The position numbers and the translations under genes were made by a program. The notes beneath the pieces were generated by a model. It ran no database searches and was not told the origin of the DNA. It saw only the letters and a program-made list of their open reading frames with translations. A DNA stretch of 64,000 bases. Origin: Mustelus asterias. Its lineage: Eukaryota. This document shows, piece after piece, positions 5,833 to 62,723 of this stretch. The stretch is from NCBI RefSeq assembly GCF_964213995.1, contig NC_135820.1, positions 34,286,001 to 34,350,000 on the forward strand, in the 5' to 3' direction. The stretch's first letter is position 1; every line of letters starts with the position of its first letter.

Positions 5833-5976
5833 NNNNNNNNNNNNNNNNNNNNNNNNNNNNNNNNNNNNNNNNNNNNNNNNNNNNNNNNNNNNNNNNNNNN
5901 NNNNNNNNNNNNNNNNNNNNNNNNNNNNNNNNNNNNNNNNNNNNNNNNNNNNNNNNNNNNNNNNNNNNNNNNNNNN
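5833..5976. other. Assembly gap (144 N)
   Basis: Run of N. Confidence 1.
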
Positions 5977-13669: not shown

Positions 13670-14190
13670 ATGATTTGATTTGATTTAATTTGATTTATTA
13701 TTGTCACATGTATTAGTATACAGTGAAAAGTACTGTTTTTTATGCGCTAAACGGACATAGGGAAGGAAAGGAGAGAGTGCAGAATGTAGTGTTACAGTCA
13801 TAGTTAGGGTGTCGAGAAAGATCAACTTAGTGAGAGGTAGGTCCATTCAAAAGTCTGATGGCAGCAGGGCAGAAGCCGTTTTTGAGTTGGTTGGTACATG
13901 TTCTCAGACTTTTGTATCTTTTTCCCAATGGAAGAAGGTGGAAGAGAGTATGTCCGGGGTGCGTGGGGTCCTTGATTATGCTGGCTGATTTTCCAAGGCA
14001 GCGGGAAGTGTAGACAGAGTCAATGGATGGGAGGCTGGTTTGCGTGATGGACTGGGCTTTGTTCACAACCCTTTGTAGCTTATTGCGGTCTTGGACAGAG
14101 CTGGAGTTGTGATATAACTGGAAAGAAAACTTTCTATGGTGCATCTGTAGGAGTTGGTGAGAGTTGTAGCGGGCATGCTAAATTTCTTTT
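13670..14190 (-). mobile_element. Rex1/Babar-type LINE 3' fragment
   Basis: LQRVVNKAQSIT...DPTHPGHTLFHLLPLGKRYKSL C-terminal RT block; (TCAAA)n tail. Confidence 0.8.
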
Positions 14191-15258: not shown

Positions 15259-15924
15259 AACATAGAAGGAGGCCATTCGGCCCATCGAGCCTGCACTGAC
15301 TACAATCCCACCCAGGCCCTATCCCCAAAACCCCACATTTTACCCTGTTAATCCCTCTAACATACACACCCCGAGACACTAAAAGGCAATTTAGCATGGC
15401 CAATCAACCTAACATGCACATCTTTGGACTGTGGGAAGAAACTGGAGCACCCGAAGGAAACCCAAACAGACACGGGGAGAATGGGTGGCACGGTAGCACA
15501 GTGGTTAGCACTGCTGCTTCACAGCTCCAGGGACCTGGGTTCGATTCCCTGCTCAGGTCACTGTCTGTGTGGAGTTTGCACATTCTCCTCGTGTCTGCGT
15601 GGGTTTCCTCCGGGTGCTCCGGTTTCCTCCCACAGTCCAAAGATGTGCGGGTTAGGTTGATTGGCCATACTAAAATTGCCCCTTAGTGTCCTGAGATGTG
15701 TAGGTTAGACGGATTAGCGGGTAAAATATGTGGGGTTAGGGCCTGGGTGGGATTGTGGTCGGTGCAGACTCGATGGGCTGAATGGCCTCTTCCTGCACTG
15801 TAGGGTTTCTATGATTTCTATGAATGTGCAAACTCCACACAGGCAGTGACCCAAGCCAGGAATTGAACCAAGGCCCCTGGAGCTGTGAGGCAGCAGTTCT
15901 AACCACCATGCCACCATGCCACCC
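15259..15924 (-). mobile_element. HE1-type V-SINE split by an antiparallel HE1 copy
   Basis: Outer halves 15259-15483 and 15822-15924 are contiguous in the consensus. Confidence 0.85.
15484..15821 (+). mobile_element. Full-length HE1-type V-SINE, nested, TSD GAATG
   Basis: Complete head, core and tail; GAATG at 15479-15483 and 15822-15826. Confidence 0.9.
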
Positions 15925-33329: not shown

Positions 33330-34178
33330 GTAAGTTATATTTAGCATTGCTTCAATTGACTGTACCCATATGTTTTATTGTGTAATTGTAATGTCCTAAC
33401 TATGTGGGGGGGTTGTGGGTTTTAAAGAAAAAGATATGGTTTGCACAGGTGGATTCAAAATAATAACAGATTTATTTCAGGAGCTGTTGCCTGTGCAGTG
33501 TAGGAAATGAAACTAAAAAACTGCCTATGTAACATCCAATTACATCACCATTAAATCATATGACTGGCTCTTAAAACAATCATAAAACCACTTAAATATA
33601 GAACAACAGTAGACATTTGATTAAACTCTTAAATATTGAGTTCTTCTTCTCCAATCAGAAGGTGCAAATGTCTGGCCTTGAAATGGGTTAACACCTGAAT
33701 AAAAATGAATACTAGTTTATAACAATCATGTAATGTTGTTATAGAAGTAGCACCAATCAGAAAATATACCCCGGTATGTGTTCACTGAATAGCTTCTTAA
33801 AATCATGCATTTTTAGTTATTAAACTAAAGAGATAATCCTCAATATGACAGATGTTCATGGGGTTACTCCATATATGGACAAGTTTGATTCCATTTGTTG
33901 TTTAAAATATAAGCAGCTACTGTCAGTTTATGTGCACAGTACATAGAAAAACGTATTATACAATAAATATTCCTTGAATAGCCACACTACCAAGAAGCAA
34001 TGCAAACAGCAGGATAGGAAATGAGAACTATCTGATTAAATGGACTGTTAACCGGATCCAAGCTGGCTGGTGAGGCTGAAACCAAGATCTAGAGCTTTTC
34101 TTTACTGAGAGTTTATTGACTTGTTCAACCTCAGCATTCTTCCCATTATACCCAATGTCTCAGCTCTCTCCTATCTAT

Positions 34179-37100
34179 ACAGTATGTAATGGAACCTACA
34201 AGGGAGCAAGCTATTCTAGAACTGGTCCTGTGTAATGAGATGGGAATAATTAATGATCTTGCAGTTAGGGATCTTATTGGAAGAAGCGATCACAGTATGG
34301 TTAAATTTAAAATACAGATGGATCGATAGAAGGTAAAATCCAATATCAGTGTCTTGTGCTTAAACAAAGGAGACTACAAAGGAATGAGGGAGGAGTTGGC
34401 TAAAGTAGACTGGGAGCAAAAACTTTATGGTGAGACAATTGAAGAACAGTGGAGGACTTTCAAAGTGATCTTTCACAGTGCTCAGCAAAAGTATATTCCA
34501 ATGATAAGGAAGGACTGTAGAAAAAGAGATAATCAGGATATCTAAGGAAATAAAGGAGAGTATCAAATTGAAAGAAAATGCATTCAAAGTGGCAAAGATT
34601 AGGGGAACCTAGAGGATTGGGAAATTTTTAAAGGTCAGCAGAAAGCCACGAAAAAAGCTATAAAGAAAAGTAAGATTGATTATGAGAGTAAACTAGCTCA
34701 GAATATAAAAAGAGATAGCAAAGGTTTCTACAAATATATAAAATGAAAAACAGCGGCTGAAGTAAACATTGGTCCTTTAGAGGACGAGAAGGGGGATGTA
34801 ATAACTGGAAATGAGAAAATGGCTGAAGCATTGAACAGATATTTTGTGTTGGTCTTCACAGTGGAAGACACAAATAACATGCCAAAAATTGATGACAGGA
34901 AGGCTATGGCAAATGAGAACCTAGAAATTATCATTATCACAAAAGAGATAGTGTTGGGCAAGTTAATGGGGCTAAAGGTGTTCATGGGGTTGGATGGAAA
35001 ATTTTCGGACTGGAGGCAGGTTGCTAGCGGAGTGCCACAGGGATCGGTGCTTGGTCCTCTGCTCTTTGTGATTTTTATTAATGACTTAGAGGAGGGGGCT
35101 GAAGGGTGGATCAGTAAATTTGCTGATGACACCAAGATTGGTGGAGTAGTGGATGAGGTGGAGGGCTGTTGTAGGCTGCAAAGAGACATAGATAGGATGC
35201 AAAGCTGGGCTGAAAAATGGCAAATGGAGTTTAACCCTGATAAATGTGAGGTGATTCATTTTGGTAGGACTAATTTAAATGTGGATTACAGGGTCAAAGG
35301 TAGGGTTCTGAAGACTGTGGAGGAACAGAGAGATCTTGGGGTCCATATCCACAGATCTCTAAAGGTTGCCACTCAAGTGGATAGAGCTGTGAAGAAGGCA
35401 TATAGTGTGTTAGCTTTTATTAACAGGGGGTTGGAGTTTAAGAGCCGTGGGGTTATGCTGCAACTGTACAGGACCTTGGTGAGACCGCATTTGGAATATT
35501 GCGTGCAGTTCTGGTCACCTCACTATAAGAAGGATGTGGAAGCGCTGGAAAGAGTGCAGAGGAGATTTACCAGGATGCTGCCTGGTTTGGAGTGTCGGTC
35601 TTATGAGGAAAGGTTGAGGGAGCTGGGGCTGTTCTCTTTGGAGCGGAGGAGATTGAGGGGAGACTTAATAGAGGTTTATAAAATGATGAAGGGGATAGAT
35701 CGAGTGAACGTTCAAAGACTATTTCCTCGGGTGGATGGAGCTATTACAAGGGGGCATAACTATAGGGTTCATGGTGGGAGATATCGGAAGGATATCAGAG
35801 GTAGGTTCTTCACGCAGAGAGTGGTTGGGGTGTGGAATGGACTGCCTGCAGTGATAGTGGAGTCAGACACTTTAGGAACATTTAAGCGGTTATTGGATAG
35901 GCACATGGAGCACACCAGGATGGTAGGGAGTGGGATAGCTTGATCTTGGTTTCAGATGAAGGTCGGCACAACATCATGGGCCGAAGGGCCTGTTCTGTGC
36001 TGTAATGTTCTATGTTCTATGTTCTAAGTCTCCTGGTCCTAATGGAATGCATCCCAGGATACTAAAAGAGATGGAGGGAGAAATAGCAAATGCACTAGTG
36101 GTAATTTACCAAAATTCGCTGGTCTCTGGGGTGGTTCCCGCAGATTGGAAAACAGCAAATGTGACGCCACTGTTTAAAAAAGGAGGTAGACAAAAGGCAG
36201 GTAACTATAGGCCGGTTAAATTAACTTCTGTAGTAGGGAAAATGCTTAAATCTATCATCAAGAAAGAAATAGCGAGACATCTGGATATAAATTGTCCCAT
36301 TGGTAAGACGCAGCATGGGTTCATGAAGGGAAGGTCATGTTTGACTAATTTGGTGGAATTCTTTGAGAACATTACAATGGGGACCTGTGGATGTGGGGTA
36401 TCTGGATTTCCAGAAGGCATTTGACAAGGTGCCGCATGAAAGACTGCTGCATAAGATAAAGGTGCACAGTGTTACGGGTAATGTATTAGCATGGATAGAG
36501 GATTGGTTAACTAGCAGAAAGCAAAGAGTGGGGGTAAATGGGTGTTTTTCTGGTTGGCGATCAGTGACTAGTGGTGTGCCTCAGGGATCAATATTTATGA
36601 TTTACATAGATGATTTGGATGGGGACCAAGTGTAGTTTGTCAAAATTCGCAGATGACACTATGATCAAAGTGGCGGAGCAAAGTGTGCCGAGGATGCTGA
36701 AAGTCTGCAAAGGGAGATAGATAGTCTAAGCGAGTGGGCGAGGGTCTGGCAGATGGAGTATAATGTTGGTAAATGTGAGGTCATCCATTTTGGTAGGAAT
36801 AACAGCAAAATTGACTATTATTTAAATGGTAAAAAATTGCAGCATGCTGCTGTGCAGAGGGACCTGGGTGTCCTTGTGCAGGAATCTCAAGGAGTTGGTT
36901 TGCAGGTGCAGCAGGTAATTAAGAAGGCAAATGGAACTTTGTCTTTTATTGTGAGAGGGATGGAGTTTAAAAACAGTGAGGTTATGTTGCAGCTGTATAA
37001 GGTGCTGGTAAGGCCACACCTGGAGTACTGTGTACAGTTTTGGTCTCCTTACTTGAGAAAGGATATAGTGGCACTGGAGGGGTGCAGAGGAGATTCACTA

Positions 37101-37588
37101 GGTTGATTCCGGAGTTGAGAGGGTTGGCTTATGAGGAGAGACTGAGTAGACTGGGGCTATACTCATTGGAATTCAGAAGAATGAGGGGAGATCGCATAGA
37201 AACATATAGGATTATGAAGGGAATAGATAGGATCGAAGCAGGGAAGTTGTTTCCACTGGCGGGTGAAACTAGAACTAGGGGGCGTAGCCTCAAAATAAGG
37301 GGAAGCAGATTTAGGACTGAGTTGAGGAGGAACTTCTTCACGCAAAGGGTTGTGAATCTGTGGAATTCCCTGCCCAGTGAAGCAGTTGAGGCTACCTCAT
37401 TGAATGTTTTTAAGGCAAGGATAGATACATTTTTGAACAGTAAAGGAATTAAGGGTTATGGTGAGCAGACGAGTAAGTGGGGCTGAGTCCATGAAAAGAT
37501 CAGCCATGATCCTATTGAATGGCGGAGCAGGCACGAGGGGCCAGATGGCCTACTCCTGCTCCTAGTTCTTACGATCTTATGTTCTTAT
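34179..37588 (+). mobile_element. Older 5'-truncated CR1 LINE (ORF2 broken by stops and frameshifts), interrupted by a younger CR1
   Basis: EPTREQAILELVLCN, KSPGPNGMHPRILKE, FDKVPH and RPHLEYCVQFW pieces in several frames; 3' tail tcttatgttcttat. Confidence 0.92.
34981..36026 (+). mobile_element. Young 5'-truncated CR1 LINE nested in the older CR1
   Basis: Uninterrupted RT C-terminus (SGVPQGSVLGP...FADD...WNGLP) with its own (TGTTCTA)n tail; the host motif LKV|(D)KSPG is split around it. Confidence 0.9.
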
Positions 37589-38711: not shown

Positions 38712-41700
38712 TCAGTACCACTTACCCGCCTGATCCCCATAACCCTTAATTCCCTTACCGATCAGGAATCCATCCATCCCCGCTTTAAACATATTCAGCG
38801 AGGTAGCCTCCACCACCTCAGTGGGCAGAGAATTCCAGAGATTCACCACCCTCTGGGAGAAGACGTTCCTCCTCAACTCTGTCTTAAACCGACCCCCCTT
38901 TATTTTGAGGCTGTGTCCTCTAGTTTTAACTTCCTTACTAAGTGGAAAGAATCTCTCCGCCTCCACCCTATCCAGCCCCCGCATTATCTTATAAGTCTCC
39001 ATAAGATCCCCCCTCATCCTTCTAAACTCCAACGAGTACAAACCCAATCTCCTCAGCCTCTCCTCATAATCCAAACCCCTCATCTCCGGTATCAACCTGG
39101 TGAACCTTCTCTGCACTCCCTCCAATGCCAATATATCCTTCCTCATATAAGGGGACCAATACTGCACACAGTATTCCAGCTGCGGCCTCACCAATGCCCT
39201 GTACAGGTGCATCAAGACATCCCTGCTTTTATATTCTATCCCCTTCGCAATATAGGCCAACATCCCATTTGCCTTCTTGATCACCTGTTGTACCTGCAGA
39301 CTGGGCTTTTGCGTCTCATGCACAAGGACCCCCAGGTCCCTTTGCACGGTAGCATGTTTTAATTTGTTTCCATTGAGATAGTAATCCCATTTGTTATTAT
39401 TTCCTCCAAAGTGTATAACCTCGCATTTCTCAACGTTATACTCCATTTGCCATATCCTCGCCCACTCACTCAGCCTGTCCAAATCTCTCTGCAGATCTTC
39501 TCCGTCCTCCACACGATTCACTTTTCCACTTATCTTTGTGTCGTCTGCAAACTTCGTTACCCTACACTCCGTCCCCTCCTCCAGATCATCTATATAAATG
39601 GTAAATAGTTGCGGCCCGAGTACCGATCCCTGCGGCACGCCACTAGTTACCTTCCTCCAACCGGAAAAACACCCATTTATTCCGACTCTTTGCTTCCTGT
39701 CGGATAGCCAGTCCCCAATCCACTTTAACACACTACCCCCAACTCCGTGTGCCCTAATCTTCTTCAGTAGCCTTTTATGGGGCACCTTATCAAACGCCTT
39801 TTGGAAATCCAAAAACACCGCATCCACCGGTTCTCCTCCATCAACCGCCCTAGTCACATCTTCATAAAAATCCAACATGTTTGTCAAGCACGACTTTCCC
39901 CTCATGAATCCATGCTGCGTCTGATTGATCGAACCATTTCTATCCAGATGCCCTGCTATCTCCTCTTTAATAATGGATTCCAGCATTTTCCCTACTACAG
40001 ACGTTAAGCTGACCGGCCTATAGTTACCCGCCTTTTGTCTCCTTCCTTTTTTAAACAGCGGCGTAACATTAGCCGTTTTCCAATCAACCGGCACTACCCC
40101 AGAATGCAACGAGTTTTGATAAATAATCACTAACGCATCCACTATTACCTCTGACATTTCTTTCAATACCCTGGGATGCATTCCATCCGGACCCGGGGAC
40201 TTATCCACCTTCAGTCCCATTAGTCTACCCAGCACTGCCTCTCTGGTAACATTAATTGTATTAAGTATTTCTCCTGCTGCCAACCCTCTATCGTTAATAT
40301 TTGGCAAACTATTTGTGTCCTCCACCGTGAAGACCGACACAAAAAACTTATTTAAAGACTCAGCCATATCCTCATTTCCCACTATTAACTCCCCCCTCTC
40401 GTCCTCCAAGGGTCCAACATTCACTCTAGCCACTCTATTCCTTTTTATATATTTATAAAAACTTTTACTATCATTTTTTATATTAATTGCTAGCCGAGCT
40501 TCATAGTCTATCCTTCCTTTCTTTATCGCTTTCTTAGTCTCTCTTTGTTGTTTCTTAAATTTTTCCCAATCACTTGTTTCTCCACTATTTTTGGCCACTC
40601 TGTACGCAGCTGTTTTTATTTTAATACTCTCCTTTATTTCCTTCGTTATCCACGGCTGGTTCTCCCTTTTCTTACAATCCTTGTTTTTTGCTGGAATATA
40701 TTTTTGCTGAGAACTGAAAAGGATCTCTTTAAAAATCCTCCACTGTTCCTCAGCTATCCTACCTGCCAGCCTGCTCTCCCAGTCTACCTTAGCCAATTCA
40801 TCCCTCATCCTATCATATTTCCCTCTGTTCAAACAGAGGACACTGGTTTGGGACCAAACTTTCTCCTCTTCCATCTGAATCAGAAATTCGACCATATTGT
40901 GGTCACTAGACCCAAGAGGGTCCTTCACAATAAGATCCTTAATTCTACCTACCTCGTTACACAATACCAGATCCAAAATAGCTCGTTCCCTCGTCGGTTC
41001 CGTAACATGCTGTTCAAGGAAACTATCCCGACAGCATTCTAAGAACTCTTCCTCCATTCCACCCTTACCGACTTGAGTCTGCCAGTCAATGTGCATGTTG
41101 AAGTCCCCCATGATTATTGCCGTTCCGTTTTTACACGCATCCCTTATCTGCTTGTTTATAGCCCTCCCTACCTCAACATTATTATTTGGGGGCCTATATA
41201 CCACACCTACTAGTGTCTTTCTCCCTCTACTATTCCTCATCTCTACCCATAATGATTCCACGTTTTGTTCCTCAGAGCCTATGTCATCCCTCAGTACTAC
41301 CCTGATATTATCTCTTATTAATAGCGCGACCCCACCAACTTTTCCTTCCTGTCTATTCTTCCTAAACGCCTGATACCCCTGGATATTCATCTCCCAGTCC
41401 TGGTCACCTTTCAGCCACGTTTCTGTAATGGCCACTAGATCGTACCCACTCGTGCTGATTTGCACCATCAACTCATTTACCTTGTTCCGAATGCTTCGTG
41501 CATTCAGGCAAAGTGTCCTTATTCCAGCTTTTATCTGGACCCGCTTTGATGAGTCGCGAACACCCTCTCCCTCTACTCCCTTATCTAAATTACCGCCTTC
41601 ATTCACTTGCACCCTCTCCTCTACCATTAATTTTGTAATTCCCCTTACCCCTGCATCCTCCACCCCATCAATTAGTTCCTTGATCCTAGTCAACTCTTCT

Positions 41701-41717
41701 AGCTCCCCTCCCCCCAA
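38712..41717 (-). CDS. CR1 LINE ORF2: APE endonuclease + reverse transcriptase
   Basis: 1001 aa with no stop; LNARSI, ITETWL, MGDFN, SDHN (endonuclease); QHGF, FDKVPH, GVPQGSVLGP, FADD (RT). Confidence 0.97.
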   Translation of the reverse strand: MGGGELEELTRIKELIDGVEDAGVRGITKLMVEERVQVNEGGNLDKGVEGEGVRDSSKRVQIKAGIRTLCLNARSIRNKVNELMVQISTSGYDLVAITETWLKGDQDWEMNIQGYQAFRKNRQEGKVGGVALLIRDNIRVVLRDDIGSEEQNVESLWVEMRNSRGRKTLVGVVYRPPNNNVEVGRAINKQIRDACKNGTAIIMGDFNMHIDWQTQVGKGGMEEEFLECCRDSFLEQHVTEPTRERAILDLVLCNEVGRIKDLIVKDPLGSSDHNMVEFLIQMEEEKVWSQTSVLCLNRGKYDRMRDELAKVDWESRLAGRIAEEQWRIFKEILFSSQQKYIPAKNKDCKKRENQPWITKEIKESIKIKTAAYRVAKNSGETSDWEKFKKQQRETKKAIKKGRIDYEARLAINIKNDSKSFYKYIKRNRVARVNVGPLEDERGELIVGNEDMAESLNKFFVSVFTVEDTNSLPNINDRGLAAGEILNTINVTREAVLGRLMGLKVDKSPGPDGMHPRVLKEMSEVIVDALVIIYQNSLHSGVVPVDWKTANVTPLFKKGRRQKAGNYRPVSLTSVVGKMLESIIKEEIAGHLDRNGSINQTQHGFMRGKSCLTNMLDFYEDVTRAVDGGEPVDAVFLDFQKAFDKVPHKRLLKKIRAHGVGGSVLKWIGDWLSDRKQRVGINGCFSGWRKVTSGVPQGSVLGPQLFTIYIDDLEEGTECRVTKFADDTKISGKVNRVEDGEDLQRDLDRLSEWARIWQMEYNVEKCEVIHFGGNNNKWDYYLNGNKLKHATVQRDLGVLVHETQKPSLQVQQVIKKANGMLAYIAKGIEYKSRDVLMHLYRALVRPQLEYCVQYWSPYMRKDILALEGVQRRFTRLIPEMRGLDYEERLRRLGLYSLEFRRMRGDLMETYKIMRGLDRVEAERFFPLSKEVKTRGHSLKIKGGRFKTELRRNVFSQRVVNLWNSLPTEVVEATSLNMFKAGMDGFLIGKGIKGYGDQAGKWY

Positions 41718-41722
41718 CCTAT

Positions 41723-42652
41723 CTAGTTTAAATTCTCCCCAGTAACCTTAGCCAACCTACCGGCCAGGATATTGGTCCCCGTGTGATTCAAGTTCCACCC
41801 GTTTTTTGTATACAGATCACCCCTGCCCCTAAAGAGGTCCCAATGGTCCAGGAACCTGAATCCCTGCCCCCTGCACCAGTCCCTCAGCCACACATTCATC
41901 TTCCACCTCACTCCATTCCTGCCCTCACCTTCCCGTGGCACAGGCAGTAATCCTGAGATTACTACCTTTGCTTTCCTCTTTCTCAGCTGTCTCCCTAATT
42001 CCCTGTACTCCCTTTTCATGACCCCTTCTCCCTTCCTACCCACATCAGCGGTACCAATATGTACCGCTACCTCAGGCTCCTCTCCCTCCCACCTCAGGAT
42101 TTCCGGGACGCGACTAGCGACATCCTGGATCCCGGCCCCAGGGAGGCAGACCACCATGCGAGAATCCCGCCTACCTCCGCAGAAACGCCTGTCTGTCCCC
42201 TTCACCATCGAGTCCCCGATTAATACCGCCTTCCTCCTCTTTTCCTTAGCCCTCTGAGTTACAGGGCTGGACTCCACTGCGGAGACACGGCCACTGCTGC
42301 TTCCCCCAGGCGGGCTGTCCCCCCCAGCAGTACTCAAGCAAGAGTACTTGTTGTGCAGGGGCAAATCCACTGGGGTGCTCTCAACCACCCTAGCCTTACC
42401 CTTCCTGGCCATCACCCACTTGGCCTCCTCCCGTTGCCCTGGTGTGACCACCTGATGATAGCTCTTGTCTATCACCTCCTCATTCTCCCTCATCAGCCTA
42501 AGATCCTCGAGCTGCAGTTCCAGCTCCCTAACACGGTCCCTCAGGAACCGCAGCTCGACACACCCCTCACAGATGTGGATGTCTGGGAGGCCAGATGCCT
42601 CCAGGACCTCCCACATCCTACACTGGGAACAACACACTGGTTTCACACTCAT
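41723..42652 (-). CDS. CR1 LINE ORF1: N-terminal Zn-finger/leucine zipper + SGNH esterase
   Basis: ATG at 42652; CxxC...CxxC, coiled coil LRDRVRELELQL, IGDS, CLPGA, HIGT and LNHTG esterase blocks. Confidence 0.93.
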   Translation of the reverse strand: MSVKPVCCSQCRMWEVLEASGLPDIHICEGCVELRFLRDRVRELELQLEDLRLMRENEEVIDKSYHQVVTPGQREEAKWVMARKGKARVVESTPVDLPLHNKYSCLSTAGGDSPPGGSSSGRVSAVESSPVTQRAKEKRRKAVLIGDSMVKGTDRRFCGGRRDSRMVVCLPGAGIQDVASRVPEILRWEGEEPEVAVHIGTADVGRKGEGVMKREYRELGRQLRKRKAKVVISGLLPVPREGEGRNGVRWKMNVWLRDWCRGQGFRFLDHWDLFRGRGDLYTKNGWNLNHTGTNILAGRLAKVTGENLN

Positions 42653-42983
42653 ACTGGACACTTTATGTCAAGTAAGACAGTGAAAAGTTAATAAGAGTGT
42701 AAGGAAACAAAAACTCACCCCTGCTCGTCCAAGCCCTGTGAGCCAAAGCCCTGACAGCTCACTCAACTTCCCACTCACTCTGCCGCCCGCTACGATGCTG
42801 CCCGCTGTATACTTTGGTGCGCTTTTAAACCCTCCAAAAACTTCCCCAGGCCTCTCCTGGCCCGACTTCCGGTTTTGAAAAAAACCTCCGATTTTAAACC
42901 CAAAATTAACTGAAAAAATAAATAATTAATTAAAGTCAGAAAACCCACTCTCTTACCCTCAGCCTGCTCCTGGGAACAAATCC

Positions 42984-43768
42984 CTGATATTAACAACTGA
43001 TATTAAACCCAAACAACTGAGATTAAACCCAAACAACTGGGATTAAACCCAAACAACTGATATTAAACCCAGAACAACTGAGACTAAACCCAGAACAACT
43101 GATATTAAACCCAAACAACTGAGATTAAACCCAAAACAACTGAGATTAAACCTAAACAACTGATATTAAACCCAAACAACTGAGATTAAACCCAGAACAA
43201 CTGATATTAAACCCAAACAACTGATATTAAACCCAAACAACTGAGATTAAATCCAAACAACTGATATTAAACCCAAACAACTGAGATTAAACCCAAACAA
43301 CTGATATTAAATCCAAACAACTGAGATTAAACCCAAACAACTGAGATTAAACCCAAACAACTGAGATTAAACCCAAACAACTGAGATTAAATCCAAACAA
43401 CTGAGATTAAATCCAAACAACTGAGATTAAACCCAAACCACTGAGATTAAATCCAAACAACTGAGATTAAACCCACAACAACTGGGTTTAAACCCAAACA
43501 ACTGAGATTCAATCCAAACAACTGAGATTAAACCCACAACAACTGAGATTAAATCCAAACAACTGAGATTCAATCCAAACAACTGAGATTAAACCCACAA
43601 CAACTGAGATTAAATCCAAACAACTGAGATTAAACCCACAACAACTGAGATTAAACCCAAACAACTGAGATTAAATCCAAACAACTGAGATTAAACCCAC
43701 AACAACTGGGATTAAACCCAAACAACTGAGATTCAATCCAAACAACTGAGATTAAACCCACAACAACT
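42984..43768. repeat. Minisatellite, ~39 copies of a 20-21 bp unit (CTGAGATTAAACCCAAACAA)
   Basis: Direct head-to-tail units with few variants (GAT/TAT, CCC/TCC, CCCACAAC). Confidence 0.97.
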
Positions 43769-48790: not shown

Positions 48791-48959
48791 GTGCGTTGGT
48801 AACAAGATTTATTTTATCTTAGTTTCTGTACTAGCAGGCTTCCCCTGGCATTATTTATCAGCATGAACATTATGGACAGGATTATTTGGTCCTACCATCT
48901 GCCCCCGAGACCAGAAATCCCTGCCCGAGGTCAACGAACCTTTCAATAGCCTGTCAAAT

Positions 48960-49264
48960 GGGTGGCACGGTGGCACACTGCCTCACTACACCAGGGAATC
49001 AGGCTCAATTCCGGCCTTGGGTGACTATGTGGAGTTTGCACATTCTCCCTTTGTCTGCGTGGGTTTCCTCCTGGCACTCTGGTTTCCTTCCACACTCCAA
49101 AGATGTGTGGGTTAGGTGGATTGGCCACACTAAATTGCCCCTTAGTGTCAGGGAGACTAGCAGGGTAAATGCATGGTGTTATGGGAATAGGGCCTGGTGG
49201 GATTGTGGTTGGTGCAGGCTTGTTGAGCTGAATGGTGTCCTTCTGCACTGTAGGGATTCTATGA
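48960..49264 (+). mobile_element. HE1-type V-SINE inserted in a MITE (~48875-49300)
   Basis: V-core and CR1-like tail; MITE halves on both sides. Confidence 0.82.
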
Positions 49265-49765
49265 AATCTTCTGCCCCACAGGCTGGGCTGGAAAATTTAC
49301 TCTTCACCCTAGTTCTATATTCTTCCATTTCTTTTTTGTTATATATGCATCAAGTCTCCTTAAATGCATTAGTACTATTATTTCAAAGCTCTAGGTTTTC
49401 CCCATTTCCTTTCATGTTTTAGTTTTATTTTGGCTTATGTAGCTCTCTCTGATTCACATTGCGGCTACGATGTCTTGCCAGCTCTGTGCCCTGAACAATT
49501 TCCCATTGTAACAAATTACAGCAGTGCTGTCAGCAGGAAAAACTCAGGAAATCTTTAGTAATCTTATTGCTTAATTTGCCTCCATGAAGTGACTCTTGCC
49601 TTGAATCTCTAATTCTAGGTAAAAATAAAGCCTTGTTTTATTTGGAAACAAAACTGTTATTCATTTGATTATGACATTCAGAACGAAATGCAAAATAGAG
49701 CAAATGAGTCAAAAGTGATTTTTTTGTTCTTGACAAGAGTTTTCACCTACTCTCTTTCATTCCAG

Positions 49766-49855
49766 AAGGATCAGTTTGATCTGTATGCGTTGTACAGCAA
49801 GAACAAGCCACAATCCGATTTCCTACTCAGCAACCACGGCAACAGCTTCTTCAGA
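49766..49855 (+). CDS. RhoGEF exon M KDQFDLYALYSKNKPQSDFLLSNHGNSFFR (DH)
   Basis: Acceptor ttcattccAG, donor gtatgt; YxxYSKNKP motif. Confidence 0.95.
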
Positions 49856-50018
49856 GTATGTGGTTCAATTATCTGTGCAGTTGTGTAGGACCCTTATATT
49901 ACCGAGACACTCACTGCTTTCAGCCTTCTGGCCAGGTCTCCCGGAGATAACTCAAAGCAATATCCAGGCTGACACACTTCCTTGTGTTGACTGGAGACAG
50001 CGATTCAAAATTTCTCTC

Positions 50019-50333
50019 TTTTTTTTTAATACTTTTTCAATTCAATCAAATCAAATCCAATTCAGAGTCTCAACAAGTTGAGACATTTCCGATCCAGGCT
50101 GACAAGACAGGGCGGGTGACTAAGCCACCCTGTCCTGGGCCTGATCTACATGAGTCAAGCTGATTGGAGAAGCGGGAGGATCCTCCTCCAAGACTTGAGC
50201 TCATTTGCATCTTAGCCAAAAGGCCGAGATGCCGCTTTTAAAAATTGCTTCATATGAAACATATGAAGCCTCAGCGTAACCTCATGACCTCAACCAAGTG
50301 CAGATCCGATACTACACTTGATCTTAGCCAAAA
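50019..50333 (-). mobile_element. U2 snRNA-headed SINE-like element (two U2 5' segments, hairpins, A-rich tail)
   Basis: 50308-50333 = U2 nt 15-40 and 50209-50229 = U2 nt 7-27 (minus strand); A9 tail at 50019-50027. Confidence 0.7.
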
Positions 50334-51661
50334 TCCAATTTTGCTTCCAAACATGGGAGAAACCAAGTTTAAATTTCTCAGCTCCACGCTCCTGACAAGT
50401 GTTTCAAGTTGGTGCATCACACCAGTCTGATGGAAATTAAACATCCCGCTATAGTATCCCAGTAATACTTCCAGGAGCATCAATTTTGATTTTTCTATAT
50501 ATGTACAAATGAAAGTTGTTGGCTGTCTGAGAGATCGATTGGCACCTCCATCCACAAACATTCACTCCCTCCACTGCCGGTGCACAGTAGCAGCAGTGTT
50601 CCACCTAAAAGATGCACTCTTTAGGAACTCAGCAAGGAAAAGCAATAAAACTGGGAAATACTGGTCCAATCTGGTCTTATGTACCTTAAACGAGACACCA
50701 GTAAAAACTGGGAAATAAAAATACTGGTCCAAACTCTAAGGTGCTGTACCCACCTTCCAAACTCATGATCACTACCATCTAGAAGGACAAGGGCAACAGA
50801 TATATGGGAATACCAACTCCTGCAAGTTCCTCTCCAAGTCACTCACCATCTTGACTTGGAAATATATCGCTGTTCCTTCATTGAGTTAAAATCCTGGAAT
50901 TCCCTCCCTAACAGCACTGTGGATATACCTACATGACATGGACTGCAACAGTTCAAAAATGCAACTCACCAACCACTACCTTCTCATGCACAATTAGAGA
51001 TGGGCAATAAATGCTGGATTTGTCACTGAAGCCCATGTCCGTTCAATGAATGAAAAAAAATTGGAGATAAGATGAGCAAAACCCATTTCACTTAGGATTT
51101 TTGTGAGGTTTCCTGTTTGGGAAATAAAGGAGTAATGCTGATTTTATTTTTTCATTCTTTAATTATTCCTTCCACTTTTACCAAGGCTTTTTCTGAGCAC
51201 CAGATCTGCACCCAGAATTTTGCTAATCCCATTGAGAAATTATTTATTGGAATATATCGGATAGCAGTCTGAAAATGACTTGTACACTATGGGGAAGGAT
51301 TTATAAAGGTTTCTTTGATTGCCTTTTCAGTTTCTGATAAACAATTAGGTGAAGTTCTCAACACAGGTTTAATGTATTGTTTCGCTAGTTTTATTCTCAG
51401 AACTTAGTTCACACCAGATATTTTGTGTCCGTGTGTTGGTACCTCAGAAGGTCGGAGAGAGTAAAACATCCCAATGTATCGATCAGCAAGAAAAAAACTT
51501 GCATTATGAAGTATTTCAACACATCGCTTAGAATTGCCCCATGACATTTTCCATGCTGTGGCCAATCCCTCCTTCCTTCAATTGAAAAGGAAGGCAATGA
51601 GAAAAATAATAATCTGGCAGTCATGTGCAAATATTTGACTTGAGATGACAATACTCTACAG

Positions 51662-52134: not shown

Positions 52135-52727
52135 TTTTGTCTCCCGTGATCAGAGGGGATTTGGTGCGGAAGTAGAATGTTTTCTATAGCAACTGGAATA
52201 ATATTATCAACACTTTATTTTCCAATGTGCATCAGAAGAGAGTGCTGAATAGCAGAGTGGAGGGCTTAAATAAAGTCATTTCATTGCATAATGGCAAAAC
52301 ATGTCTGCATTGTATAGAATTTAGCTCAAAATTTTGAGCATGAGCCACGAACATATCATGGTCAGGAACACTCAATTTCCTTTAAAATGGGGAAACCTCA
52401 AGAGTACAATGGACTAAGTTTTCTATTACATCATAACCTGAATGGGACCTTGTTACTTCACTGGCGGGAGAGGGGGGTTGGGGGGAGGAATATCGGAAAA
52501 TGAGACCTTGCCAACAAGATTCCTGTTTTCCAGCACTTGCGCCCACATTGCCATTTGTACAAAATCTACCCCCACTCCCCACCGCAGTCTGAGTAAAATT
52601 CACTGGATGGGTATTCAAAACATTCAAAATCTCCCGTGACAACGTTCGAACGCTACTATCTGAAAATCTGCCCCGACAAATTCATGCAATGAAATGGTTT
52701 AAACCTGCTTCCTTTCCCTCGGCACAG

Positions 52728-52952
52728 ACCAAACAGCTGGAATTGGGTGACAAGATGGACCTGGCATCCTACCTACTGAAGCCTATTCAGAGAATCAGCA
52801 AGTACAACTTATTGCTGAGGGATATGTTCAAAGCGTGCAGCACAGCCCAGGAGAAAGAGTGCAAGGATATCCAGGCAGCCCATCAGATTGTGTGTTTCCA
52901 GCTACGCCATGGAAATGATTTGCTTGCAATGGATGCTATACAGGAGTGTGAT
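52728..52952 (+). CDS. RhoGEF exon N TKQLELGDKMDLASYLLKPIQRISKY...HGNDLLAMDAIQECD (DH end)
   Basis: Acceptor ggcacAG, donor gtgagt; DH CR3 motif. Confidence 0.95.
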
Positions 52953-53378
52953 GTGAGTGGAGATTCACTTTAGAATGGTGAAGTTTCATACGCTGTTTTT
53001 GTTTAAATTTAGAAACCATGTTCTTATCACTTATTCTACTAAGAGGAATACTATGAACGTCTCAAAAAGATTATCACTTCCTCTGTAAATTATGACAATT
53101 CCAAATTCCTCAGTATTTCAAAATTGTGAGACATCTGATTTATCAATAATGCAAGGGTACAATATGATTATTCGCAATACTATGTCATCTGGATAGGATG
53201 ATATATTTTAGGTTGTCACTTCACATTTTTCTATTATTTGCTGGAATAGGTTGAGGGCTCTCACACATGCAAATGTCTATAACCTTGTCCATGTAACCAT
53301 CCTTCACAAGTGAGCAATGAAAGTAAGTTTCAATGGTGAGGGTGGCATAGCCAAACTCAATGTTGTCCTCCCCCAATA

Positions 53379-53785
53379 TTTGATTTGATTTATTATTGAC
53401 ACATGTAGTAGTATACAGTGAAGAGTATTGTTTCTTGCATGCTATACAGACAAAGCATACCGTTCATAGAGAAGGAAAGGAGAGTGCAGAATGAAGTGTT
53501 ACAGTCATAATTAAGGTGTAGGGAAAGATCAATTTAGTGCGAGGTAGGTCCATTCAAAAGTCTGATGGCAGCAGGGAAGAAGCTGTTCTTGAGTCAGTTG
53601 GTACGTGACCTCAGACTTTTGTATCTTTTTCCCAAAGGAAGAAGGCAGAAGAGAGAATGTCCAGGGTGTGTGGCGTCCTTAATTATGCTGGCTGCTTTTC
53701 TGAGGCAGCAGAATGTATAGATAGAGTCAATGGATGGGAGGCTGGTTTGTATGACGGATTGGACTACATTCGTGACCGTTTGTGG
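53379..53785 (-). mobile_element. Rex1/Babar-type LINE 3' fragment
   Basis: Colinear with 13670-14190; LPSIDSIYT...HPGHSLF. Confidence 0.8.
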
Positions 53786-58136: not shown

Positions 58137-58389
58137 TGTGGTGAACCATCGTTGGTTGCCACTGTGGGGGTTGTATAATGTTGTTGGGTTAGGGTGTTTA
58201 CCTGTGGTAGATGTTGTTATGGCACATCCCGGTCGGGCCCCGCCTCCTGGGGAGAGGTATAAGACCCTCTGCTCCGGCGGGACCCCTCCAGTCTGAACTG
58301 GTGTACTCGTGTTAGTTAGTTCCATTGTTTGCTAATAAAAGCCTTCAATAGCTGAAGCCTTGTTCCACGTGCTTGATTGTCGCGCATCA
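58137..58389 (+). repeat. 5' LTR (GC box ~58238, TATAAGA 58258-58264, AATAAA 58334-58339)
   Basis: Direct repeat of 62471-62723. Confidence 0.97.
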
Positions 58390-58431
58390 ATTTTATTAGC
58401 AAACATAAAACTCTCAACAGTAAAAGGGAGT

Positions 58432-61400
58432 ATGGAACAAATATTAAAACCAGAACGTCTGGCGCTGGACCCACGTGCGGTCGGTGCCGCTAACACCTTC
58501 GACCACTGGTGGAAGTGTTTCGAAGACTACCTGGCAGCCTCTGTAGCTGTTACTACAGACGATGACAAACTCCAGGTCCTCCACGCGAGGGTAAGCGACA
58601 CGATTTATCTTGCGATTCGTGCGGCCACCACTTACCCGAGGGCCATCGAGCTCTTGAAGAAACGATATACGAGACCACCCAACGAGATACACGCTCGTTA
58701 CCTCCTCGCTACACGACGTCGGCAGTCGGGCGAAACCATGGAGGACTACGCCAATGAGCTCTTGCAGCTTGCCAGGGGTTGCGATTGTAAAGATGTGTCA
58801 GCAGAGCAATATATGTACGACCTCGCTCGAGATGCGTTCGTAGCAGGGGTAGGGTCCTCGTACATCCGGCTTAAGTTATTAGAGAAAGGGAACCTCAACT
58901 TGACCCAAGCGATGGAGATGGCTGAGATGCTGGAAGCAGCGTCGAAAAGCTTGGCTCTGTACCCCGAAGACCACGCGGAGACAACGTGGCAAGAGCAAGC
59001 ACAAATCCCTCCTCGCCCCACGGGCTCGCGCTCCCATATCGATCCGACGACGGCGGCAGCTCCAGGCGGCCAGCGATGCTATTTTTGCGGCGGGGCCAAG
59101 CATTCACGGCAGCAGTGTCCTGCAAAAACGGCAATCTGCAGCCAGTGTGGTAAAAAGGGCCACTATGCTAAAGTTTGCAGGTCGAAGCCCAAAAACGGCA
59201 GTGCAGCCTGTGACCCTCCAGAGCGGAGACAATCTCCTTCGGCGTCGCAGTACCCACGAGGTCCGACCACATGCGAATCCAGGACGGCGCCATCGTGGCT
59301 GACGGAGGAGGAGGAAGACCACCAGGAGTCGCTACGTTTGGCGCCCTCACCCACGTGCGATTCATGGGGGCGGCCATCATGGTCAACGACGACTAGGAGC
59401 GACCAGCAGGGGTCCTCAGCATCAACCTCGGCTGCATGCAGTGACGCCCGGGGGCCAACGGTGGCGTCGATCTCTCTGGACCAGACAAAGCATCACAGGC
59501 TTGATAATTCCATGATGAACATCAAGGTAAATGGTCGTACTGTGTATTGTCTGTTTGACAGTGGGAGCACCGAGAGTTTTATTCACCCTGACACTGCAAA
59601 AAGGTGTGGACTCCGGGTTCTACCTGCCAAACAGACAATTTCCATGGCATCACGGTCCCGGTCTGTACCGATCCAAGGACGTTGTATGGTAACCCTAGAG
59701 GTACAGGGCACAATTTACGAGCAATACAGGCTCCTTGTGTTACCGCACCTTTGTGCACCAATTCTCCTCGGACTAAATTTTATGGTCCACATGAAGAGTG
59801 TGATCCTACAGTACGGTGGGCCACTCCCTTCACTGGCAGTAGGGAATCAGCCGCAGCCTCCAAATTGCCCAAAGCGCCCCGCATGCAATCTCTCCACACT
59901 AAAAATCACCACACCTTCTTTATTTAAGAATCTGGTACCAGGCTGCAAGCCCATTGCTACTAAGAGTAGGCGTTACAGCGCTGAAGACCGGATCTTTATC
60001 AGATCTGAGGTTCAGCGGCTCCTCAAGGAAGGGATCATACAGGCCAGTGCTAGTCCGTGGAGAGCGCAGGTCGTGGTGGTTAAAAGCGGGAACAAACCTC
60101 GGATGGTCATCGACTACAGTCAGACCATTAACCGTTATACGCAGCTGGATGCGTATCCTCTCCCGCGCATTTCTGATATGGTCAATCAGATTGCGCAGTA
60201 CCGGGTGTTCTCTACCATAGACCTTAAGTCCGCCTACCATCAACTCCCCATCCGCCCAGAGGACCGACAATACACGGCTTTTGAGGCGGATGGTCGTCTA
60301 TACCATTTTCTCAGGGTTCCATTTGGTGTCACCAATGGGGTCTCGGTCTTCCAGCGTGCTATGGACCGAATGGTGGACCAGAACGGGTTGCGGGCTACCT
60401 TCCCGTACCTGGATAACGTCACCATCTGCGGCCATGACCAGCAGGACCATGACACGAATCTCCAACACTTTCTGCGCACTGCATCTCGCCTGAATCTGAC
60501 CTATAACAGGGAGAAGTGCGTATTCCGTACGCGCAGGTTAGCTATCCTTGGATACGTGGTGGAAAACGGGGTCATTGGCCCTGATCCAGATCGTATGCGC
60601 CCCCTTACTGAACTTCCCTTGCCCGCTAGCACAAAAGCACTGAGGAGATGCCTCGGCTTCTTTTCGTATTATGCGCAGTGGGTCCCCAACTACGCGGACA
60701 AAGCTCGTCCGCTCATCAAGTCCACGACCCTCCCACTCACGCCGGAGGCCCAATTGGCCTTCAAGGCTTTGAAAAGCGACATTGCGAAAGCCACGATGCA
60801 CGCGGTGGATGAATCCATCCCTTTCCAGGTGGAAAGTGATGCATCTGATTTCGCCCTAGCCGCCACACTAAACCAGGCAGGCAGGCCCGTTGCGTTCTTT
60901 TCCCGCACCCTTCAAGGCCCCGAAATTCGGCACTCAGCGGTGGAGAAGGAGGCTCAGGCCATTGTGGAGGCCATCAGACACTGGCGCCATTACCTGGCGG
61001 GGAAGCGGTTCACCCTGATCACGGATCAACGATCCGTGGCGTTTATGTTCAGTAACACGCAGAGGGGCAAGATCAAGAACGATAAGATCTTGCGGTGGAG
61101 AATTGAGCTCTCCACCTATAATTACGATATTATGTATCGTCCAGGGAAGCTCAATGAGCCCTCGGATGCCCTCTTGCGCGGAACATGCGCCATCATGCAG
61201 GAGGACCGCTTGAAGGCCCTCCACAATGACCTGTGTCATCCTGGAGTCACCCGACTCTACCACTTCGTAAAAGCCCGCAACCTGCCCTACTCGGTGGAGG
61301 ATGTCAGGTCAGTGACGAGAAGCTGTCGGATTTGCGCGGAATGCAAACCGCACTTTTATCGACCGGACCGGGCACAATTGGTCAAGGCCACTCGCCCCTT

Positions 61401-61452
61401 CGAGAGGCTGAGTGTGGATTTTAAGGGCCCCCTTCCCTCAACGGACCGGAAT
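58432..61452 (+). CDS. Gypsy gag-pol polyprotein (Gag with two CCHC knuckles, protease LFDSGS, RT, RNase H, integrase Zn finger)
   Basis: Single frame from ATG 58432; CYFCGGAKHSRQQC, CSQCGKKGHYAKVC, PFG, YLDN, SDASD, HPG...CRIC motifs; frame breaks at ~61452. Confidence 0.93.
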
Positions 61453-62407
61453 TGTCTATTTTCTCAATATAATAGACAAGTACTCCCGGTTCCCGTTTGT
61501 TGTCCCCTGTGCGGACATGTCGACTGCCACAGTGATTAAGGCATTCAGTGATCTTTTTACCCTGTTCGGGTACCCCTGCTACATACATAGCGACAGGGGC
61601 TCGTCGTTCATGAGTAACGACTTGAGGCAATTCCTGCTCTCATACGGGATTGCCTCTAGTAGAACCACGAGCTACAACCCTCGGGGTAACGGACAGGTGG
61701 AGAGGGAGAATGCTACAGTCTGGAAGGCTGTCCTACTGGCGCTGAAATCCAGGGGCCTTCCAGTCTCCCGTTGGCAGGAGGTCCTTCCAAATGCGCTTCA
61801 TTCCATCCGCTCCCTCCTGTGTACGGCAACCAATGCTACTCCCCACGAGAGGATGTTCTCATTCCCTCGGAAGTCGTCCTCGGGGATCTCCTTACCAGCC
61901 TGGTTGACGTACCCAGGACCCGTCCTTCTGCGGCGACATGTGAGGGCCCGCAAGTCCGACCCCTTGGTCGAACCGGTCCAACTCCTCCACGCCAACCCTC
62001 AGTATGCCTATGTAGCATATCCTGACGGGCGAGAGGACACAGTCTCGATTCGAGACCTGGCGCCCGCAGGGGACGTAGCAACTCCTGTCGCTCCCATACC
62101 CCCTGTCACGAATCCCCTATCACTTATTTCTTCCCCAGACGTGGCGCGGTCAGCACCGGGACCAGTGCATAACAGTTATACTCCCATGTACAGCTTGCCT
62201 GAGACTTGGAGATCGGCGCCACCACAGAAGGTTCCAGGATCCCCTGCACCATCGCCTCACCAGGGTCAACCGGCCCGGGAGTCCTCGAGGGGACAGCCGG
62301 ACGCTGTTTTGGAGAGAACGCCACCGCAAGCACCTGCTCCGGTGTCGCAACCGGTGTTGAGGAGATCACAGCGACGGTGCGGTCCTCCAGACCGTCTGGA
62401 CTTGTGA
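61453..62407 (+). CDS. Gypsy integrase core and C-terminus (after a +1 frameshift)
   Basis: YSRFPF, IHSDRGSSF, YNPRGNGQVERENA DDE motifs and terminal LRRSQR...PPDRL; frame is +1 relative to upstream pol. Confidence 0.9.
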
Positions 62408-62470
62408 ATTTTGTACATATGTGACCTGTTTTCGCACCCCGCTGGCCTTTGTTTTTAAAGGAGGGGTGAA

Positions 62471-62723
62471 TGTGGTGAACCATCGTTGGTTGCCACTGTG
62501 GGGGTTGTATAATGTTGTTGGGTTAGGGTGTTTACCTGTGGTAGATGTTGTTATGGCACATCCCGGTCGGGCCCCGCCTCCTGGGGAGAGGTATAAGACC
62601 CTCTGCTCCGGCGGGACCCCTCCAGTCTGAACTGGTGTACTCGTGTTAGTTAGTTCCATTGTTTGCTAATAAAAGCCTTCAATAGCTGAAGCCTTGTTCC
62701 ACGTGCTTGATTGTCACGCATCA
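62471..62723 (+). repeat. 3' LTR (AATAAA 62668-62673)
   Basis: Identical to the 5' LTR except A62716 vs G58382. Confidence 0.97.

Follow-up and report, generated by a model that had tools for sequence, protein, structure and literature searches.

In the papers searched, the SINEU families of short retroposons are reported from crocodilians only (PMC4494074). SINEU-1E and SINEU-1F have a unique body that is preceded by two pieces of U2 origin, SINEU-1 copies are flanked by target site duplications (TSDs) of about 10 bp, all SINEU groups have a poly(A) tail, and some Tx1-Mar LINEs likewise bear U1 or U2 heads; the transcription of SINEU and the repeated gain of snRNA heads are left there as open questions. 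U2 sequence is further associated with Keno (Tx1 clade) and Utopia (RLE clade), two U2-targeting LINEs which are followed by U2 from nt 39 (PMC4640811), and snRNA chimeras are known to arise by template switching with L1, L2 and RTE LINEs, including triple chimeras, most of them involving U6 or U6atac (PMC4476161). Searches of the literature listed no U2-headed SINE from sharks or rays, although such a family may already be entered in Repbase or Dfam, and the 12 of 24 supplements covered of the whale shark paper PMC8455134 contain nothing relevant.

In the window, i.e., the whole 64-kb stretch of DNA analysed here, the minus strand of an elasmobranch intron carries an element with two U2 5′ pieces. 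Its parts and surroundings, in the order in which the minus strand is read and followed by the two host exons, are:

50371..50379, either strand: 5′ copy of candidate TSD 2, which implies a 37-nt non-U2 5′ extension
50331..50340, either strand: 5′ copy of candidate TSD 1, sharing 3 bases of microhomology with the start of the U2 match
50308..50333, minus strand: U2 head 1, U2 snRNA nt 15-40, 26 of 26 bases identical (Rfam and a human U2 line, compared by eye)
50278..50303, minus strand: anti-U2 arm, pairing with U2 nt 18-22 and 25-36 of head 1
head 1 plus anti-U2 arm, minus strand: hairpin H1, 17 pairs, 5 of them G.U
50247..50269, minus strand: hairpin H2, a perfect 10 bp, placed by cmscan on stem 65-87 of the U2 model
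50240..50245, minus strand: A-U5 run, a possible degenerate Sm-like site without the closing G
50202..50232, minus strand: U2 head 2, U2 nt 4-33, 28 of 30 positions matching plus one inserted G
50207-50232, minus strand: hairpin H3, U2 stem I of head 2, lengthened by 3 pairs
50203-50210, minus strand: octamer, formed from altered U2 nt 26-32 within head 2
50150..50204, minus strand: hairpin H4, 20 pairs, containing the palindrome, CCAAT and TGACTCA
50089..50148, minus strand: hairpin H5, a 13-bp core with an outer stem, containing the GC box
50067..50084, minus strand: hairpin H6, two 8-bp arms separated by 2 nt
50053..50062, either strand: 3′ copy of candidate TSD 1, 10 bp
50019..50052, minus strand: degenerate TTTGA/ATTGA repeats ending in A9, which count as flank with TSD 1 and as tail with TSD 2
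50008..50016, either strand: 3′ copy of candidate TSD 2, 9 bp, 2 nt past A9
49769..49855, plus strand: presumed host gene, upstream exon with 29 open codons ahead of a GT donor (about 49856)
within 52593-52970 (about 52.7 kb), plus strand: RhoGEF-domain exon that follows in the presumed host gene

Like SINEU-1, and especially 1E and 1F, the element is short and non-coding, with two U2 5′ pieces before a body of unknown origin. It also shares with SINEU-1, as described in PMC4494074, oligo-T inside the element and the lack of a Pol III promoter; its candidate TSDs and probable 5′ truncation would likewise match the TSDs of about 10 bp and the frequent 5′ truncation of SINEU-1. Unlike SINEU-1, -2 and -3, it resides in an elasmobranch and not in a crocodilian, and a poly(A) tail is uncertain here; in addition, the main text of PMC4494074, as far as available, mentions neither an anti-U2 arm nor a hairpin series for SINEU-1. 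A possible parallel with SINEU-3 is that remodelling of a U2 5′ half gave rise to the 5′ module. Whereas SINEU-3 comprises 32 bp and 83 bp of U2 and about 40 unique bases, two 5′ pieces and a unique body of about 140 nt are present here. The element would work like SINEU-1E/1F but stands apart from SINEU-1, -2 and -3 by its host.

The likeness to Keno and Utopia is confined to the U2 5′ sequence stopping near their insertion site at nt 38/39. In contrast to both, the element has two heads, no open reading frame for an endonuclease or reverse transcriptase (RT) and no U2 from nt 39 downstream, its first head runs to nt 40, and it does not lie in a U2 gene; an insertion of the Keno/Utopia type is therefore not supported, the original prediction having named a non-autonomous derivative of a U2-targeting LINE as one of two possibilities. 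With the snRNA/LINE chimeric retrocopies of PMC4476161 it has in common an snRNA 5′ piece joined to other sequence and flanking by a duplication (a candidate here), but the snRNA is U2 and not U6, and the sequence joined to it matches the head in structure and is not recognisable as the end of a LINE.

With respect to the U2 pieces themselves, positions 15-40 of the Rfam U2 model (RF00004) correspond letter for letter to 50333-50308, so that the assignment of U2 nt 15-40 to 50308-50333 made beforehand holds exactly, and four of the six bases following nt 40 also agree with U2. Since U2 nt 1-14 are missing, head 1 is probably 5′-truncated. Rfam positions 7-26 match 50229-50210 in head 2, while its full extent (nt 4-33) comes from a comparison by eye with the human U2 line in PMC4640811 S1. 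For this second piece, U2 nt 7-27 running into an octamer had been proposed; 50209-50229 is indeed U2-like, but the piece is longer and the octamer lies inside it. Exact matches of 26 nt and 21 nt are expected by chance 6e-11 and 3e-8 times per window, respectively, and apart from two chance 11-mers no other U2 piece occurs elsewhere in the 64 kb. Judged by these matches, both U2 pieces are genuine. When searched with cmscan, 50233-50333 aligns to positions 15-100 of the U2 model (30.4 bits, with an E of 4.8e-5 when 101 nt are searched). This best score does not reach the Rfam U2 gathering score of 46, a match to a full-length U2 snRNA gene is absent, and at gathering scores Rfam finds nothing in the whole window. 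The A-U5 run lies at most 3 nt from the place that the A-U5 of Rfam U2 would occupy in a collinear continuation of head 1 (probability by chance about 0.005, post hoc, the place in the model coming from a hand count).

On the minus strand, 50063-50333 forms six hairpins next to one another (-121.2 kcal/mol, z -8.41), with none of 200 shuffles being as good, in agreement with the view of a structured element taken at the outset; the hairpins at 50247-50269 and 50067-50084, the long imperfect stem at 50091-50146 and the palindrome, a perfect 12-bp one at 50175-50186, are all present as they had been described. Mean pair probabilities per hairpin range from 0.92 to 1.0, and over 470 tiles on two strands only one locus is more structured than the element. 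This is a closely spaced inverted pair of the window's common short repeat at 15264-15924 (about 15.4 kb), which has the most stable fold of all. The plus strand of 50063-50333 also folds well (-100.4 kcal/mol, z -5.88, 0 of 200 shuffles as good). After correction for base skew, the strand asymmetry of the whole element is unexceptional (residual z 1.08, with 27% of 234 tiles showing one as large), and G.U and A.C oppositions number 11:4 (p 0.06); therefore the orientation of the element rests on the sense of the U2 pieces and on H1. H6 might be regarded as a candidate 3′ recognition stem-loop.

A structural feature that had escaped the original prediction is the wobble-rich anti-U2 arm just downstream of head 1. 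H1 has a folding energy of -22.7 kcal/mol as compared to a mean of -7.8 when real 30-nt control tiles are joined to the head, of which 0 of 4,239 fold as low, and a 12-bp helix is formed in 4 of 4,250 tiles. Its stability differs between the strands (-20.3 kcal/mol on minus vs -7.4 on plus). Counted in a strand-neutral manner, the arm and the head show 15 Watson-Crick pairs, 6 G.U, 0 A.C and 3 other oppositions (one-sided 1/64 by arithmetic), as compared to 569 G.U and 611 A.C, and thus no wobble bias, over the 43 alignments of the window's DNA-level inverted repeats. All 9 departures from complementarity fall on the arm side while the U2 side is identical to U2 at 26 of 26 positions, a distribution with p of about 0.002 by arithmetic if one assumes a perfect inverted copy at the start and equal drift thereafter. 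As the departures are all on one side, the arm seems to have changed while the U2 opposite it stayed constant, the head being either constrained or renewed from cellular U2. If the equivalent of nt 4-14 is added in front, pairing extends from -37.5 to -45.6 kcal/mol, and with a longer head the arm could pair as far as nt 11-16, which suggests that head 1 is longer in the full element.

In H1, nt 33-36 of the branch-point recognition sequence are buried, together with eight of nt 19-28, and the changes in head 2 add 3 pairs to stem I, lowering H3 from -7.4 to -14.5 kcal/mol. From the modelled pairing we infer that both heads would be disarmed, head 1 by the arm and head 2 by its lengthened stem I, and the tuning of H1 and H3 implies a long-selected master RNA and not a one-off join. 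With its U2 pieces locked in this way, a transcript would be unlikely to act as U2 in splicing or to interfere with it, and if so the element would illustrate how a parasite may contain the active part of a spliceosomal RNA and yet leave splicing unharmed. Between head 2 and the arm, pairing is unremarkable (-18.5 vs a mean of -11.7 kcal/mol, sd 3.9).

As for the ends, the original prediction saw no clear TSD; two candidate direct repeats, of 10 bp and 9 bp, have since been found, both post hoc. Repeats as good as candidate TSD 1 turn up in 13 of 3,420 real tiles and, after shuffling, in 44 of 5,000 sequences (p 0.004-0.009, post hoc); this candidate suggests ends at 50063 and 50333, with an insert of 50063-50330 that lacks poly(A) and lies in a degenerate TTTGA tract. 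Candidate TSD 2 is only slightly inferior (33 of 3,416 real tiles, 84 of 5,000 shuffles; p to about 0.017, post hoc), so that the element measures 271-350 bp depending on the ends chosen, and both could be true if the master copy was transcribed with its flanks. The A9 noted beforehand is present at 50019-50027, at the end of the 50019-50062 stretch, within the bounds of TSD 2 and outside those of TSD 1; of the (TTTGA)n reported next to it the tract as such exists, but only two of its units are perfect and the others are degenerate. A dispersed repeat family (13672-14076 and 53378-53783) ends in an ATTTG-type microsatellite resembling this tract, and one idea is that the TTTGA stretch could be a remnant of such a repeat, 18 of 19 bases matching within the microsatellite. 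An exact 13-bp direct repeat, possibly due to chance, connects the downstream flank (49962-49974) with the element body (50092-50104); its length is reached in 2 of 2,000 shuffles but in 7 of about 420 real tiles. Decayed tandem copies were sought on either side, and the similarity is significant neither upstream (161 of 2,000 shuffles, 84 of 1,318 tiles) nor downstream (407 of 2,000 shuffles, 393 of 1,318 tiles). A CpG age signal is absent, 26% of 470 tiles being as high.

The presumed host gene has a RhoGEF-domain exon, and the element lies antisense in its intron, 160-210 nt from the upstream exon. On the plus strand, 50308-50333 supplies the host pre-mRNA with a perfect 26-nt complement of U2 that includes the branch-point pairing region and has little shielding in this orientation. 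Binding of U2 or a cryptic branch site could result, as holds for any antisense intronic U2 fragment. Self-comparison of the 64-kb window gives no second copy of the element, and none was found in phages and plasmids or by protein searches with chance reading frames, all of them weak routes as the collections are not shark genomes; a single GTDB match, in pattern only, was judged to be chance. The element is non-coding, with only short chance frames, for which protein searches gave no homologue (including a 46-aa frame), and with no RT similarity at the locus. A tRNA head was not found by ARAGORN, nor was there an Rfam match to tRNA, 5S or 7SL at E<=10, and runs of T4 and T5 occur inside the element. 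Neither rough descriptors nor Rfam over 49800-50600 gave a ribozyme core of the HDV-like or hammerhead kind, one HDV fragment being at chance level (E 9.2).

The suggestion that the element possibly carries its own promoter motifs is a weak one, although all of the motifs are present and their cluster is unusual. CCAAT, TGACTCA and the GC box occur once each in the element, where 0.74, 0.038 and 0.038 copies, respectively, would be expected per 271 nt (0.017 for the octamer), and the four occur together in none of the 930 other tiles, the motifs having been chosen post hoc. An snRNA-type promoter acting in the 3′ direction would also be conceivable: ahead of the TSD 1 end, the octamer lies at a distance of about 140 nt and a TCACC, a 5-nt match to the PSE consensus, at about 57 nt. 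Against a promoter role, the octamer is altered U2, the motifs sit mostly in stems, and in vertebrates the promoters of snRNA genes precede the transcribed sequence, PMC4494074 reporting no internal one. It is thus doubtful that the motifs act as an internal promoter.

Taken together, the locus would on balance be explained best as a SINEU-like, LINE-mobilised and Pol II-transcribed short U2-headed retroposon, and hence as a candidate family seen as a single copy in 64 kb. In this respect the original prediction of an snRNA-derived SINE stands for the snRNA head, the short, non-coding and structured nature, the elasmobranch host and the SINEU-1E/1F layout, whereas the family is putative, one copy having been seen. 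Such an element would have grown as U2 5′ pieces were added one after another, head 2 being the older and altered one and head 1 the newer and unaltered one. A master copy would be transcribed by Pol II from a flanking promoter, and a LINE, most likely of the L1/Tx1 group by analogy with PMC4494074, would have copied the element in by target-primed reverse transcription, which would leave a 5′-truncated head and a 9-10 bp duplication; the 3′ hairpins would stabilise the RNA or bind the LINE protein. If true, SINEU-like elements arose or persisted outside archosaurs, and intact copies would allow the questions of SINEU transcription and head gain to be tested.

A non-autonomous derivative of a Tx1-clade LINE with U2 heads, in which the 5′ and 3′ UTRs are fused and which is moved by its parent, would account for the same heads but is unlikely, as the window contains no sequence of a parent LINE and the junction geometry of Keno and Utopia is not observed. 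Quite unlikely, too, is a one-off chimeric retrocopy generated by two template switches between U2 fragments and another structured RNA. The single copy in the window speaks for it, as does the occurrence of template-switch snRNA chimeras with L1, L2 and RTE, triple ones included (PMC4476161). However, these chimeras are mostly of U6 or U6atac, and a one-off event would yield neither an arm whose fit to the head involves 6 G.U and 0 A.C nor the stem-extending changes in head 2. If the locus were such a single chimera, it would be of little interest.

That the element is instead a functional single-locus ncRNA gene, i.e., a remodelled U2 variant or decoy antisense to the host gene with a diverged U2 5′ half as its 5′ module, would be in line with the cmscan alignment of 50233-50333 to U2 model positions 15-100 with H2 on stem 65-87, with the near-collinearity of A-U5 and the Sm site and with the intact hairpins. 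Yet the U2 score is below gathering, U2 nt 1-14 are absent at the 5′ end, the Sm-like site lacks its G and the candidate TSDs point to an insertion, which together render this account very unlikely. Hardly probable either is a non-autonomous DNA element (Helitron/Helentron-like or a MITE) with captured U2 pieces, whose hairpins would act in single-stranded DNA. Short-spaced hairpin arms and perfect palindromes are more typical of DNA elements, and here the H6 arms are only 2 nt apart and a perfect 12-bp palindrome is present; G.T wobble, moreover, occurs in single-stranded DNA too. On the other hand, no terminal or subterminal inverted repeat joins the ends of 50063-50333, the two strands fold nearly alike as DNA (-52.9 vs -49.5), and Helitrons are not known to make TSDs. 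Finally, the plus strand might encode an intronic guide RNA of the C/D or scaRNA type that directs modification of U2 through two U2-complementary stretches. This would fit the intronic location, the plus strand being sense to the host gene and the two stretches themselves. But there is no CUGA box after either stretch and no C box, no guide family covers the U2 pieces at a meaningful Rfam score, and H1 and H3 favour the minus strand, leaving this last account largely refuted and its probability minimal.

If the element is indeed a SINEU-like retroposon, the arm may have a further role, namely to dock cellular U2 in trans so that copies acquire a fresh head, although we consider this rather improbable. 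A free arm would bind U2 nt ~11-36 in trans and thereby place U2 nt 37-46 beside the 5′ end of the template, onto which the reverse transcriptase would jump and write a new head. With docking of this kind, both the identity of head 1 to U2 and the confinement of the 9 departures to the arm would be accounted for. The arm could also sequester U2 in cells. If true, this would provide a mechanism for the recurrent 5′ addition of U1 and U2 pieces in SINEU and the present element would belong to an independent elasmobranch family of snRNA-headed retroposons.

Among the other repeats of the window, which contains one assembly gap (5833-5976, 144 N), the recognisable LINEs are of the CR1/L2 type and have no sequence in common with the element, and no Tx1/L1 partner was found. 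An apparently intact copy on the minus strand (38715-42667) encodes an ORF1 of 314 aa with an esterase domain and an ORF2 of 1,011 aa with endonuclease and RT, and among 30 matches to its ORF1 all 11 named ones are from rays, skates or sharks. Just upstream of it is a 20-bp tandem array of about 38 copies (42992-43768), and two older broken LINE pieces of CR1/L2 kind on the plus strand (34144-37587) lie tail to tail with it, about 1 kb apart. An abundant short repeat, found at 48957-49269 and about 10 other places, resembles the shark V-SINE HE1. A Gypsy-type LTR retrotransposon on the plus strand (58137-62723) encodes protease, RT, RNase H and integrase in two reading frames; it has no clear TSD at its ends and looks recent, its LTRs being identical at 252 of 253 bases.
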